Of a DNA stretch of 64,000 nt, positions 24,089 through 28,121 are shown piece by piece. A program made the position numbers and the translations under genes. Origin of the DNA: Caldisericota bacterium (GTDB lineage Bacteria > Caldisericota > Caldisericia > UBA6126 > JAGPKI01); the NCBI GenBank assembly GCA_052034135.1, contig JBPOJC010000039.1, positions 1,543 to 65,542 on the forward strand. The letters run 5' to 3'. A model generated the notes under the pieces. The model saw only the letters and a program-made list of their open reading frames with translations, did not search any database and was not told where the DNA came from. Within the stretch, counting starts at the first letter, position 1; the number at the start of each line of letters is the position of its first letter.

Positions 24089-24165
24089 CGGGGAGTGGCT
24101 CAGCTTGGTAGAGCGTGTGGTTTGGGACCACAAGGTCGGAGGTTCAAATCCTCTCTCCCCGACCA
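24089..24165 (+). tRNA. tRNA-Pro (anticodon TGG) with encoded CCA
   Basis: A manual cloverleaf gives acceptor CGGGGAG/CTCCCCG, D-arm GCTC..GAGC, anticodon stem TGTGG/CCACA with loop TTTGGGA (anticodon TGG), T-arm GGAGG-TTCAAAT-CCTCT, discriminator A, then CCA. Confidence 0.9.
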
Positions 24166-24796
24166 TTATTAATGTTCATTTTTATTACGTTTATCCTATC
24201 CATTTAAAGATTTCTTCATCTATGGTAAAGTAATTCATGATATTGTTCATGAATTAAAATTAAATTGAAAAAGTCTTGTAGATTTGGTATAAAATTTGAT
24301 ATATAGTGATTGATTTTATAATGATTTTAGAAGTTTATATTTAATTGGTAAGATGAAAGATTTAACCTCTGAGGTAAGTTATAGGGGATTATAATATTTG
24401 TTTATATGTGAAATATCTACTAAATAAGATTACAAACGAATATGTTTAGAGGAGAACAGTTAGCTTTATAAAAGAGGATGCAATGGCTTATCAAAAATTA
24501 ATTTTTAAACTGAAAAAGAACTTCAAGAAGCAATTCTAAATGAAAAAGAAAGAGGAGCCTCTGATTTAGAAATTGGTCAGAAATACGGAGTTACTTTTAG
24601 ATATATCGAACAGCTCATTACAAAGACTCAAGGTCTAAATATTAGCAATTTAAAAGTTTCTAAAAAAATAGAAAAACTTTATCCGAAAAAATTTAACGAG
24701 GAAAAAACCACGATCTGGAGTTTTAAGCAAAGAGGAAACTGGGCAACTCATAGTGGAGAGTATAGAGGTAATTGGTCTCATTACATACCAAGGAAT

Positions 24797-26041
24797 GTGA
24801 TTCTAAAATATTCAAAACCTGGAGAATTAGTATTAGATTATTTTTGCGGTGCTGGAACAACAGCTGTAGAGTGTAAGCTTTTAGGAAGAAAATGTGTCGC
24901 CTTAGATATTAATTATAAAGCAATTGAATTGGCAAAAAAGAATATAGATTTTAGTGTGGAACCACAGCAACAATCACTTTTTGGTCAAAAACAACATTTT
25001 GAAGTCTACGAACCAAGGCTTATTGTTGGTGATGCCAGAGACTTATCATTTATAGAAGATAATTCTATTGATTTGATTTGTGCTCATCCACCTTATGCAA
25101 ATATTATTCATTATACAGATAGAAGTGAAGGTGATTTGTCGTTTTTTGATATAGATGAATTCTTAAAGGAAATGTCCAAGGTAGCTAAAGAAAGTTTTAG
25201 GGTGTTAAAACCTGGCAGACAATGTGCTATTTTGATAGGTGATACTCGAAGCAAAAAACATGTAATCCCTTTAGGTTTCAAACTAATAGATGTTTATTTA
25301 TCTGCTGGTTTTAAGCTGAGAGAGCTAATCGTTAAACAACAACACAATTGTAAAACTACAGGTTTTTGGTATACAAATAGTATAAAATACAATTTTCTTC
25401 TGTTGGCTCATGAGTATTTACCAGTTTTCGAGAAACCAGCAATATCGATTCCTGCAGTTGCAAAAGAAGAAAACACAATAAATTATGATTTGTTTATTCC
25501 TTATTCAAAGAATCCATCGGTAAAAAGTAAATCTAACGAGCTTGAGACCACAACAGTGTGGAGTTTGCCAGAGAAGGATTTCGAGGAGCATTTAAATAGA
25601 AATGTAATTGAAAGATATTCGAACGGTAGCAAATATTCAATTATTAATTTTGTGACAAATTCTAATGAAGAAACCACCTTTTTTGATAATAAAAGAGAAA
25701 AAAACAAAGCTTTGCTTTTTATCAAATTGCCACTTTTAGACAATAATCTATCTAACTCAAATATTGAATTGTATTTGCAAAAAATAAAAGAAATTGTAAA
25801 TAATGGATTACCTACAATAATAGAAGACGGCTTTATAGTTATTCAAACTCAAGATGTAAGAATTGATGGATACGTAAAGCCTCTTGCTAAAGAATTAGTG
25901 AATGAATTAACAAATGATGATTTATGGCTAAAGGAAATAGTGATTGTTACTCAGGAAGGAGTAAATTCAAAAATACAAAATTTAGAGGAGTATTTAAAGA
26001 TAGTGCATCAATATTTACTTGTTTACGAGGTGATAAAATAA
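24797..26041 (+). CDS. DNA methyltransferase (N6-adenine/N4-cytosine amino-MTase). It carries an FxGxG-type SAM motif (DYFCGAGTT) and an (A)HPPY catalytic motif. The annotated ORF is probably only the central segment of a longer, frame-disrupted gene
   Basis: Motifs VLDYFCGAGTTAVEC and DLICAHPPYANIIHY, then ..RVLKPGRQCAILIGD.. and ..HEYLPVFEKP. The reading frame is open upstream to 24509 with HTH-like sequence (LQEAILNEKERGASDLEIGQKYGVTFRYIEQLI) and no start codon. The 3' end can be joined to ORF2 by a +1 A in an A4 run. Confidence 0.75.
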   Translation: MILKYSKPGELVLDYFCGAGTTAVECKLLGRKCVALDINYKAIELAKKNIDFSVEPQQQSLFGQKQHFEVYEPRLIVGDARDLSFIEDNSIDLICAHPPYANIIHYTDRSEGDLSFFDIDEFLKEMSKVAKESFRVLKPGRQCAILIGDTRSKKHVIPLGFKLIDVYLSAGFKLRELIVKQQHNCKTTGFWYTNSIKYNFLLLAHEYLPVFEKPAISIPAVAKEENTINYDLFIPYSKNPSVKSKSNELETTTVWSLPEKDFEEHLNRNVIERYSNGSKYSIINFVTNSNEETTFFDNKREKNKALLFIKLPLLDNNLSNSNIELYLQKIKEIVNNGLPTIIEDGFIVIQTQDVRIDGYVKPLAKELVNELTNDDLWLKEIVIVTQEGVNSKIQNLEEYLKIVHQYLLVYEVIK

Positions 26042-26055
26042 AGAAAACCTTCAGC

Positions 26056-26466
26056 TTGTTAAAAACAATCTTTTACTATTTGGAGTCTTCTTATAAAATA
26101 TGGAAAGTTAATCGTTTGCAAATAGATGACCTTGTTTATACTACTAACGAAAATGTTCGTTTTGAAGTGTATCCAGGTAAAAAGTTACAATCACCTTATG
26201 ATTTTATTGTAAAATTTAGACAACCAGGCAGACGAGCAAGAACACCAGCTCATGTTCATTTGATTGTAGAAATGTATGTTAAGCATGCTTATAATCCATC
26301 TTTAACTTTAAAATTAAGAGACCATATCTTAACAATGCTCAGTCAAATTAAACCAGTAAATACATTTCCGCCAACACTTCAGGTTTTCAAACTTGAACAT
26401 ATTGAACCATTTAAGGATTTGGATAAAGTTGGCGAATTCACAGTTGAGTTCTTGCTTTTGCAATAG
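26056..26466 (+). CDS. Hypothetical protein, or a detached C-terminal (TRD-like) segment of the methyltransferase
   Basis: ORF 25924..26466 overlaps the MTase end by 118 bp. Its first 39 aa look like out-of-frame sequence. There is no in-frame ATG; TTG at 26056 is the first plausible start, and the SD is weak. Confidence 0.35.
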   Translation: MLKTIFYYLESSYKIWKVNRLQIDDLVYTTNENVRFEVYPGKKLQSPYDFIVKFRQPGRRARTPAHVHLIVEMYVKHAYNPSLTLKLRDHILTMLSQIKPVNTFPPTLQVFKLEHIEPFKDLDKVGEFTVEFLLLQ

Positions 26467-26691
26467 AATTAGTAGTAATACGGGAGAAGACCAATTATCC
26501 AAATGGAACTGCAACTGAGAATTTGTATAAGAATTTTGGAGTTAAAGACAGATTTTCAGTAATTCAGGGAGCAGTATGGAAAGGCAGGAGATAATTTAAA
26601 GAAAACCAATCATATTGCCCAAGAGCAGTTAAAAGAAATTTATAAATGTTATAACAGTTAAAAATTAATTTATCTTAGAGGTGAATCAAAA

Positions 26692-27786
26692 ATGAAATTA
26701 ACGAATGATCAAATAACAATTCTAATTGACAAATTTATAAGCTCCGAAGATGCTAAAGTATGGATAAAACAAAGGCAGGATGATAACAAACGATGGAAAG
26801 AATGGATAGATCCCAATAAAATGAGCACTATTTCAGATGAAGAACTGAAGAATAAATTCTTAGAATATTTTAATGAGGGGGCTGGTAGACATCCATTTAA
26901 TGCTGTATATAGAGACAGAATTATAAGAGATATAAACAAATTTAGAGAAACTATAAACTTTCTTATAAATGAATCAACACCTGTTAAGGAAAGACTAAAT
27001 GAAGTGTTAAATGCTAACGGAAGATATCATATTGAAGGCATAGGTAAGGGTCTTGCTACATCTATTTTAATGGATTTAGATTCGCAAAAATATGCAACAT
27101 GGAATAATAAAACAAATATGGGTTTAGAAACTCTCGGTTTAACTCCTCAATTTACTCGTAAAGATGATTGGGGAACAAGATATGAAAAAGTTATGGATGC
27201 AATTACTTATATTAAGAGCTTGAAGTCAGAACTCAGTTTTTTAGAGGTTGACCACTTTTTGCACATAGTTTCAGCTGAAGAACAAGGGATAGAGGCAGTT
27301 AAGGCATTGGTAGAAGGCAGAGAAATATCAACTACCGTTTTCCAAACGATGGATCATATTTCTAAAGAAAGAGAAAGCATGGAATTTGTTATGGAAAAGT
27401 ATCTTGAAGAGTTTATTGAAGCGAATTTTGATAGAATAGATTTTGGAGCTAAACTTCAATTATATCAAGATGAAGAAAACACAGGTAGACAATATCCAAC
27501 ACCTATAGGCAATATTGATTTATTGGCATTTGATAAAGACAAAAAAGAGTTTGTAGTAATGGAACTAAAGAAAGGTAGAAGTAGTGATGTTGTAGTAGGT
27601 CAAATATTAAGATATATGGGTTGGGTAAAGGAAAACTTAGCTATCAGCGAAAATAATGATTACAACGTAAGGGGAATTATTATAGTCAAAGAGAAAGACG
27701 ATAAATTGGATTACGCTTTAAAATTTGTACCAAATGTAAGCTTATTTTTGTACACTATTTCTTTTGGATTGAAGATGATTAAATAA
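26692..27786 (+). CDS. Putative nuclease with an N-terminal helix-hairpin-helix region and a C-terminal NucS/DUF4263(Shedu)-like PD-(D/E)xK domain
   Basis: SD AGAGGTGA is present. HIEGIGKGLATSIL fits the HhH consensus (hxxhxGhGxxxAxxhh). The C-terminal GNIDLLAFDKDKKEFVVMELKKGRSSDVVVGQILRYMGWV matches the D..ExK nuclease core followed by the QxxRY motif of NucS-type restriction-endonuclease-like folds. Confidence 0.7.
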   Translation: MKLTNDQITILIDKFISSEDAKVWIKQRQDDNKRWKEWIDPNKMSTISDEELKNKFLEYFNEGAGRHPFNAVYRDRIIRDINKFRETINFLINESTPVKERLNEVLNANGRYHIEGIGKGLATSILMDLDSQKYATWNNKTNMGLETLGLTPQFTRKDDWGTRYEKVMDAITYIKSLKSELSFLEVDHFLHIVSAEEQGIEAVKALVEGREISTTVFQTMDHISKERESMEFVMEKYLEEFIEANFDRIDFGAKLQLYQDEENTGRQYPTPIGNIDLLAFDKDKKEFVVMELKKGRSSDVVVGQILRYMGWVKENLAISENNDYNVRGIIIVKEKDDKLDYALKFVPNVSLFLYTISFGLKMIK

Positions 27787-27815
27787 ACTGTATCATGCTA
27801 TAATTTGCCATTTGA

Positions 27816-28121
27816 CAATATCCTGCTATATTCTCGCACTCAATTGTAACTGACATTTTAAAAAATGAACTTATCTTCAAAGATATTGTTGTAACAGATG
27901 ACATATCAGATATGCCGCTATCTATGAAGGGATTAAACTTAACAGATGCAGGCATAAAGGCACTTAAAGCGGGGCATAACTTAATAATGTTTTCGCATAA
28001 TTTAGATAAAACAAGAGAAATCTTTGATGAAATCCTCTATAAAGTAAATACAGATCCAGAGTTAAAAACTATTATAGAGAACAATTATCTAAAAATCATA
28101 GCTTTTAAGGATAGAATTTAA
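27816..28121 (+). pseudogene. Remnant 3' fragment (about 100 codons) of a nagZ-like GH3 gene; diverged duplicate of the C-terminus of the gene at 5353..6465
   Basis: Translation YPAIFSHSIVTDILKNELIFKDIVVTDDISDMPLSMKGLNLTDAGIKALKAGHNLIMFSHNLDKTREI... aligns residue-for-residue with NPATFSNYIVTDNLKNKLDFDGIVVTDDLSDMPLSIQGLDLVNAGIQSLKAGHNLIMFSHNLPRTKEI... of the intact gene. It has no N-terminal part and no start. Confidence 0.7.

Follow-up and report, generated by a model that had tools for sequence, protein, structure and literature searches.

Introduction

In END nucleases, a nuclease is coupled with an EndoIII/Ogg domain that has been inactivated and recognises the hypermodified DNA of phages (Yee et al. 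2025, bioRxiv 10.1101/2025.03.31.646159; PMC12191111). The partners reported for this sensor are a PLD nuclease, a 'NucS-like PD-DExK nuclease' and McrB, and one member of the NucS type that was tested, END^Mag (MDV2503288.1), restricted the modified-G phages Pa5oct and Bas19/20/21/25 in P. aeruginosa and E. coli (PMC12191111). END^Mag did not restrict T/C-modified or unmodified phages, and it defends alone in heterologous hosts (PMC12191111). Here we describe a 364-amino-acid (aa) relative of END^Mag encoded within a 64,000-nucleotide (nt) stretch, the window, of contig JBPOJC010000039.1 from a Caldisericota bacterium (GCA_052034135.1). The gene lies in a block (24089-28121) that also holds tRNA-Pro(TGG), a methyltransferase, a small open reading frame (ORF) and a fragment of a nagZ-like gene, and the block as a whole is very probably best explained as a composite islet in which a dead methyltransferase module stands next to an intact, Type IV-like restriction enzyme of the END^Mag type.

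Results

A predicted END nuclease of the END^Mag subtype

Aligned by BLASTP with END^Mag, the 364-aa protein is identical at 216 of 363 positions (60%, E 7e-169) and collinear end to end, and MDV2503288.1 (P0259 in our protein set) sits in the cluster of P0048, a homologue of the window protein. As this identity spans the full length and is accompanied by a shared pattern of PADLOC matches, we assign the 364-aa protein, by its sequence, to the END^Mag subtype of the END nucleases. In the window protein the PADLOC matches are those of the PDC-S02 models PDLC04824/04799 to the C-terminal ~160 aa (E 2.7e-45 and 2.6e-37). Homologues of the same length number more than 2400, are 50-83% identical, and occur both in bacteria (Spirochaetes, Terriglobia, Kryptonia, Saganbacteria, Dehalococcoidia and Patescibacteria) and in archaea (ANME-1, Aenigmarchaeota, Methanotrichaceae, Heimdallarchaeota, Woesearchaeota and Korarchaeota).

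The AlphaFold2 model of the protein (mean predicted local distance difference test score, pLDDT, 83.4) comprises an all-helical domain (residues 1-207) and an alpha/beta C-terminal domain, joined by a disordered linker (211-233). We assign residues 1-207 to an Ogg/EndoIII-like helix-hairpin-helix (HhH) sensor and residues ~240-364 to a NucS-like PD-(D/E)xK nuclease, in which the NucS_C/YhcG_C PD-(D/E)xK families match at aa 265-344 and the catalytic residues D276, E291 and K293 are intact. When the model is compared with known folds the sensor domain takes the EndoIII/Ogg HhH-glycosylase fold, a relation that is detectable by fold comparison and not by sequence-level search; the hhalign comparison of the sensor domain with E. 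coli EndoIII was not significant. The cholera toxin B matches returned by a PDB profile search of the same domain arise by chance through the string 'WNNKT' and were rejected.

Across 46 homologues D276, K293, W137 and N138 are invariant and E291 is nearly so, and W137 and N138 are invariant again in a 21-sequence alignment of the sensor domain. Taking the G-I-G hairpin (G116) as the anchor, a register set by eye places N138 opposite D138 of EndoIII and G120 opposite K120, and in the structure model N138 caps the helix that follows it. With an invariant Asn at the expected position of the catalytic Asp in this by-eye register, the sensor domain is likely to be catalytically inactive.

A standalone gene with a swappable sensor

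We examined the surroundings, within 6 kb, of homologues of the nuclease at 22 other independent loci. Neither a methyltransferase of the window type nor the 185-aa gene to which the small ORF of the window belongs (see below) was present at any of the 22, and no neighbour family recurs, with no Pfam family seen more than three times among the 98 ORFs flanking the nuclease homologues. Some of these neighbours are defence-like or toxin-antitoxin-like (SIR2, Schlafen/AlbA, TumE and DUF4926). The nuclease is a standalone gene, without a cognate methyltransferase.

The sensor domain, in turn, is found on other effectors. At locus L036 (1406-4617) it heads a 658-aa McrB-type AAA_5 GTPase, which is followed by McrC (PF10117, E 3.9e-43), and a search with a profile of the sensor only returned 907 representative clusters of very varied length. 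Ten of these proteins were sampled (from P0265-P0280): seven carry the McrB AAA_5 domain, MrcB_N is present in three of the ten and EVE in one, the last two being modified-base reader domains. Such combinations mark the sensor as a swappable reader of DNA modification that Type IV restriction systems employ. The architectures of the sensor may also exceed the three published ones, for example where it stands in tandem with MrcB_N or EVE on McrB, or beside DUF499 ATPases. At locus L038 (3348-6924) a 310-aa protein, made up of the END sensor and a ~90-aa tail, directly follows an 877-aa DUF499 ATPase, and the two proteins have near-identical C-termini of ~75 residues (EGVIRS.TL..KVPWDK...IEKWEE), as if the sensor docked into, or substituted within, the DUF499 ATPase system.

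A dead two-gene methyltransferase module

An open methyltransferase frame spans 24509-26041 and matches PF01555 (E 2.4e-33) and, over the full length of the model, PADLOC MTase_II PDLC03376 (E 8e-97). It encodes an N-terminal helix-turn-helix and a beta-class N6/N4 methyltransferase core with FCGAGTT and HPPY motifs, and the methyltransferase half-domain is repeated, in degenerate form, in its C-terminal 200 aa. The first canonical start in this frame is GTG 24797, which would cost about 105 aa, and three-frame translations place ATG 24483 in a different frame from the body of the gene, where a stop is reached after 18 codons. Intact homologues are 518 aa long and begin with MANPKVNFKNEQDLQEAIL. 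Because a single base added at 24506-24514 gives the window methyltransferase the N-terminus of these homologues, its sequence is best read as carrying a 1-nt deletion at 24506-24514 that shifts the frame at codon 9-11. Beyond the frameshift 510 codons run without a stop, motifs I and IV are intact, and the protein retains 71-72% aa identity to the copies at L005 and L008. Just 3' of the in-frame stop made by the frameshift, the heptamer G-AAA-AAG (24512-24518) resembles a dnaX -1 slippery site, and a -1 slip there would yield a product of exactly the homologue length; in view of the two further lesions described below, the motif is probably a coincidence.

The small ORF that follows derives from a conserved 185-aa gene, of which it is a copy with no start codon and with a frameshift. 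Members of this family measure 183-185 aa and share 75-86% identity across Atribacteria, Zixibacteria, Chloroflexi, Nitrospirota, Planctomycetota and others. At intact loci the ATG of this partner gene overlaps the methyltransferase stop as ATGA, where the window reads ATAA (26038-26040), so that the stop is kept and the partner start ATG has become ATA. A further frameshift at about 26451-26466 puts the conserved C-terminal ~47-57 codons into another frame. All three lesions are common to six independent assemblies from different sequencing runs (99.96-100% identity, gapless), and they are therefore not assembly errors. The module is dead in the window.

Elsewhere the 185-aa gene lies immediately downstream of a methyltransferase of the same type in four of four other, unrelated contexts. 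The copies of the module occupy 6448-8558 in L005, 6448-8558 in L008, 3122-5516 in L042 and 3272-5555 in L043 (24483-26594 in the window); the two genes overlap as ATGA in L005 and L008, and in L042 and L043 a called 63-aa ORF separates them. Across distant phyla the module keeps 74-77% DNA identity, and housekeeping genes flank its insertion in every case. Neither the family libraries nor the solved folds contain a match to the 185-aa partner, which is not a recognisable restriction endonuclease; it is probably the restriction or effector protein of the methyltransferase.

Two cassettes between tRNA-Pro and a truncated nagZ

The tRNA-Pro(TGG), the methyltransferase, the small ORF, the 364-aa PD-(D/E)xK protein and the nagZ remnant were all found where the initial annotation had placed them (Table 1), although its account of the genes needed amendment as to their state, the methyltransferase being frameshifted at codon 9-11 and the small ORF both start-less and frameshifted. 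All four features 3' of tRNA-Pro, from the methyltransferase to the nagZ fragment, are co-directional.

Table 1. Features of the islet and its landmarks (positions in the window)
Feature	Position	Strand	Evidence	Remark
tRNA-Pro(TGG)	24089-24165	+	ARAGORN; Rfam RF00005, 67.5 bits	Left landmark of the islet
AT-rich spacer, GC 0.22	24166-24454	.		Between tRNA-Pro and cassette 1
Methyltransferase pseudogene, 518-aa type	24483-26041	+	Three-frame translations, PF01555, PADLOC MTase_II	
185-aa partner pseudogene	26038-26594	+	Homologue comparison	Visible as small ORF 25924/26080-26466
Predicted END-type nuclease, 364 aa, intact	26692-27786	+	NucS_C/YhcG_C matches, END^Mag homology	
nagZ 3' remnant, last ~100 codons	27816-28121	+	PF00933, 5bu9_A	Right landmark

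Homology to other loci at the DNA level is limited to two blocks. The first (24455-26584, its start being seen at 24455-24469) shares 74-77% identity with the L005 and L008 methyltransferase modules, and the second (26677-27793) shares ~75% with END loci of archaea and spirochaetes. We accordingly delimit a cassette 1 at 24455-26594 and a cassette 2 at 26677-27793, which by these alignments appear to be separately mobile units whose edges fall within ~15-30 base pairs (bp) of the ORFs. In 14 of 16 other genomes (L005, L008, L011, L012, L014, L018, L020, L029, L034 and others) the cassettes lie ~4-20 guanine-cytosine (GC) points below their flanks, and this AT-richness is consistent with horizontal transfer. 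The contrast vanishes in the present 31%-GC host, in which both cassettes are compositionally invisible and the GC content of the block (0.31) relative to the window (0.314) gives no island signal. A scan for promoters and terminators gave nothing above shuffled expectation.

The right landmark is what is left of a GH3 NagZ gene. Homology to nagZ begins at 27816-27822, in agreement with the position of about 27816 in the initial annotation, and the remnant matches PF00933 at a score that exceeds the gathering threshold (E 4.9e-8) and residues 243-337 of the 340 of 5bu9_A (E 3.3e-9). The window holds an intact nagZ at 5353-6465 on the minus strand, encoding a 370-aa secreted GH3 NagZ-like protein, and the remnant is 61% identical to residues 268-365 of this protein. 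No further nagZ fragment, including the 5' part, is present in 23400-28400. From these matches the remnant is most readily understood as a truncated native nagZ paralogue, in a genome that once had two and keeps one. As only the 3' part survives in 23400-28400, the loss of about 267 codons by this second nagZ would have accompanied or followed the arrival of the cassettes. The right junction of the islet falls within 27787-27822 and the left junction somewhere within 24166-24454, a spacer without any ORF showing homology.

The data support the claim that the 3.7-kb block is accessory DNA lodged after tRNA-Pro and bordered on its far side by a native gene that has been truncated. The islet is tRNA-adjacent, tRNA-Pro ending at 24165 and cassette homology starting at 24455. 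It does not have the marks of a tRNA-integrated island, namely an integrase and, at the far junction, a direct repeat matching the tRNA 3' end: inspection of the ORFs found no integrase or transposase, and a repeat search found no direct repeat of the tRNA-Pro 3' end in the window, even with up to three mismatches, as the initial annotation had said of the integrase and the repeat. The contigs of five independent Logan assemblies (L002-L004, L016 and L017) start at 24139-24141, inside the 3' part of tRNA-Pro. We considered this as the branch of an att site and rejected it, since conserved tRNA sequence breaks de Bruijn graphs in metagenomes and the window has no second copy of the segment.

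The islet is present in all strain variants (L016 and L017 included). A scan of genome contigs with the product of an adjacent 870-aa gene returned no relatives of the host, and a search of 5.8 billion proteins found no orthologue of this product beyond the species cluster to which it belongs. This neighbour (28385-30997, with 31087-34950 downstream) encodes a secreted beta-propeller/Ig/Cu_amine_oxidN1 protein, and its best match outside the species cluster reaches at most 23% identity; the host lineage is very sparsely sampled.

On the other side of the islet, tRNA-Pro is the sole tRNA that ARAGORN reports in the window. The 600-bp gap between coaE and tRNA-Pro is GC-richer (0.36-0.37; 23600-23990) and contains a tandem 21-nt repeat (23804-23845). 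A 32-nt palindromic element is present there twice (23720-23751 and 23907-23938, TGTCATCCCCGAA...GGGGATCCA) and is absent from the rest of the window. A 244-aa Cas4-like PD-(D/E)XK nuclease with a C-terminal Cys cluster (22198-22932, minus strand; PF12705, E 6e-35) shares 28 nt with the 3' end of coaE, and there are no CRISPR-Cas genes nearby.

Discussion

We propose a model in which this islet, with no mobility genes of its own, would have been assembled from two independently mobile cassettes, with tRNA-Pro on one side and on the other a second nagZ copy that is now truncated. The sensor domain of the nuclease in cassette 2, with its Ogg/EndoIII fold, would read non-canonical bases, and the C-terminal NucS-like PD-(D/E)xK domain (D276/E291/K293) would then cut the DNA. 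The enzyme would act independently of a methyltransferase and in a modification-dependent, Type IV-like manner against phages with hypermodified DNA. Because the tested homologue END^Mag is 60% identical, the most likely target, by analogy, is a 7-deazaguanine-type modified G.

Several points weigh against this model. Specificity may be different at 60% identity to END^Mag. One representative of PDC-S02, whose relation to the window protein is unclear, did not protect E. coli B against T4, T5 or T7, a result that is compatible with a modified-G target. The likely inactivity of the sensor is drawn from a register set by eye, from helix positions in a model and from what the END paper states of the family. 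An empty site was not found, neither the contig scan nor the search of 5.8 billion proteins having produced a relative. For cassette 1, the slip motif at 24512-24518 could in principle rescue the methyltransferase by -1 frameshifting, and as the 185-aa partner is without a recognisable nuclease fold, that the cassette is a restriction-modification (R-M) pair is something we infer.

The initial annotation had offered the methyltransferase and the nuclease as a possible new R-M variant, and in its Type II form this would mean that the methyltransferase protects self while the 364-aa nuclease cuts unmethylated DNA. The co-direction of the two genes, their spacing of about 650 bp and the restriction-endonuclease-like fold of the nuclease agree with such a pair, which is nonetheless very unlikely: they do not co-occur at any of the 22 nuclease loci, where no methyltransferase is a recurrent neighbour, and in all four other contexts it is the 185-aa gene with which the methyltransferase is partnered. 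DNA homology resolves the two as separate cassettes, END^Mag defends by itself in heterologous hosts, and in a true R-M pair a frameshifted methyltransferase beside an intact nuclease would kill the host. The same annotation had as its other option a single-gene, Shedu-like defence gene beside a decaying methyltransferase, and it was right as to a standalone nuclease and a decayed methyltransferase and mistaken as to Shedu. The search that it proposed against DUF4263 gave no match to any DUF4263/Shedu model in Pfam or PADLOC, the similarity to Shedu (SduA) is at the generic PD-(D/E)xK level and below that to NucS, the N-terminal domain has the HhH glycosylase fold, and the direct full-length homologue is END^Mag, all of which makes a Shedu-type nuclease extremely improbable. 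Nor is there support for an unusual or new nuclease as first described, given its full-length 60% identity to a tested END protein.

That the 364-aa protein serves housekeeping DNA repair, as a NucS/EndoMS-like or Ogg-like base-excision factor, is quite unlikely. The proposed comparison with NucS gave a match to its C-terminal domain only, and the NCBIfam NucS models returned 34.9 and 22 bits, far below their respective cut-offs (216 and 252). An invariant Asn stands at the expected position of the catalytic Asp, the sensor domain is fused elsewhere to McrB/McrC, and the neighbours of homologues include SIR2, Schlafen-like and toxin-antitoxin-like genes. Furthermore, ~75% nucleotide identity between bacterial and archaeal copies, with GC content below the flanks, indicates horizontal transfer, and END^Mag has a shown anti-phage phenotype. 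A living cassette 1 is likewise unlikely. The methyltransferase would here be made by -1 frameshifting at 24512-24518 or from a non-canonical start and the 185-aa protein from the ATA or from ATG 25924, with the lesions being regulatory, and the position of the slip site 3' of the in-frame stop, the exactly homologue-length product and the 510 stop-free codons with motifs I and IV would fit. Against this stand three independent lesions in two adjacent genes, one of which removes the highly conserved C-terminus of the 185-aa protein, the absence of any run-length variation among the six assemblies, and intact homologues that need no frameshift. We therefore retain the model of a composite islet with a dead methyltransferase module and an intact END^Mag-type enzyme.

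The block is an ordinary accessory islet, and its nuclease falls in a family that has been described before and validated in part. Its interest lies in part in annotation, as proteins of this architecture that are labelled 'endonuclease NucS' or 'DUF91/DUF1016' are to be read as END-type modification-dependent restriction enzymes. The END^Mag subtype is extended to a poorly sampled, AT-rich lineage, and it passes between bacterial and archaeal genomes as a cassette of a single gene with nothing else attached, at about 75% nucleotide identity. The islet also illustrates that adjacency alone is an unsafe basis for R-M pairing, the neighbouring methyltransferase belonging to a different and decayed module. 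Leads with some discovery potential are only the uncharacterised 185-aa partner and the wide repertoire of sensor fusions. Tentatively, and with rather less than even confidence, the partner might be an endonuclease or effector of a new fold, with no counterpart in the PDB or family libraries, and cassette 1 a copy of a widespread, highly conserved but unrecognised mobile R-M-like module. The window copy would then be a fossil, and intact copies exist in Chloroflexi, Nitrospirota, Atribacteria, Zixibacteria and others.

Compared with known systems, cassette 1 resembles Type II R-M modules with beta-class N6/N4 methyltransferases in its whole-model match to MTase_II (PDLC03376), in the tight two-gene operon with a small partner and in its movement between phyla. 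It is unlike them in that the partner fits none of the known families or folds of restriction endonucleases, the methyltransferase has an extra helix-turn-helix and a degenerate C-terminal half-repeat, and the copy in the window is a pseudogene. The nuclease of cassette 2 aligns with the computational PADLOC candidate PDC-S02 only at profile positions 154-306 of 308, which leaves the sensor uncovered. From NucS/EndoMS (PDB 2vld) it differs in lacking the N-terminal DNA-binding and dimerisation domain of NucS, in place of which it has the HhH fold, and in belonging to a family that is patchy in distribution and horizontally transferred.

With McrBC and other Type IV systems the window protein shares the coupling of a modified-DNA reader to a PD-(D/E)xK cleavage module, and the same sensor domain is indeed the N-terminal module of McrB GTPases adjoining McrC; the window protein, in contrast, has neither a GTPase motor nor a separate McrC subunit and is a single 364-aa polypeptide. 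END^PaCF1 and its relatives, which combine a PLD nuclease with an inactive EndoIII domain, follow the same logic of an HhH glycosylase-derived sensor of hypermodified bases joined to a nuclease without a methyltransferase. Their order is the reverse, with an N-terminal PLD/HxK nuclease and a C-terminal sensor, whereas in the window protein the sensor is N-terminal and the nuclease is of the PD-(D/E)xK type. Finally, END^Mag comes from another host and context, and with 40% of residues differing the range of modifications may differ as well. In both proteins, Ogg folds are the structural neighbours of the sensor and the PDC-S02 match is restricted to the C-terminal half, and both share the collinear arrangement of an Ogg/EndoIII-like sensor followed by a NucS-like PD-(D/E)xK nuclease, standing alone without a methyltransferase.

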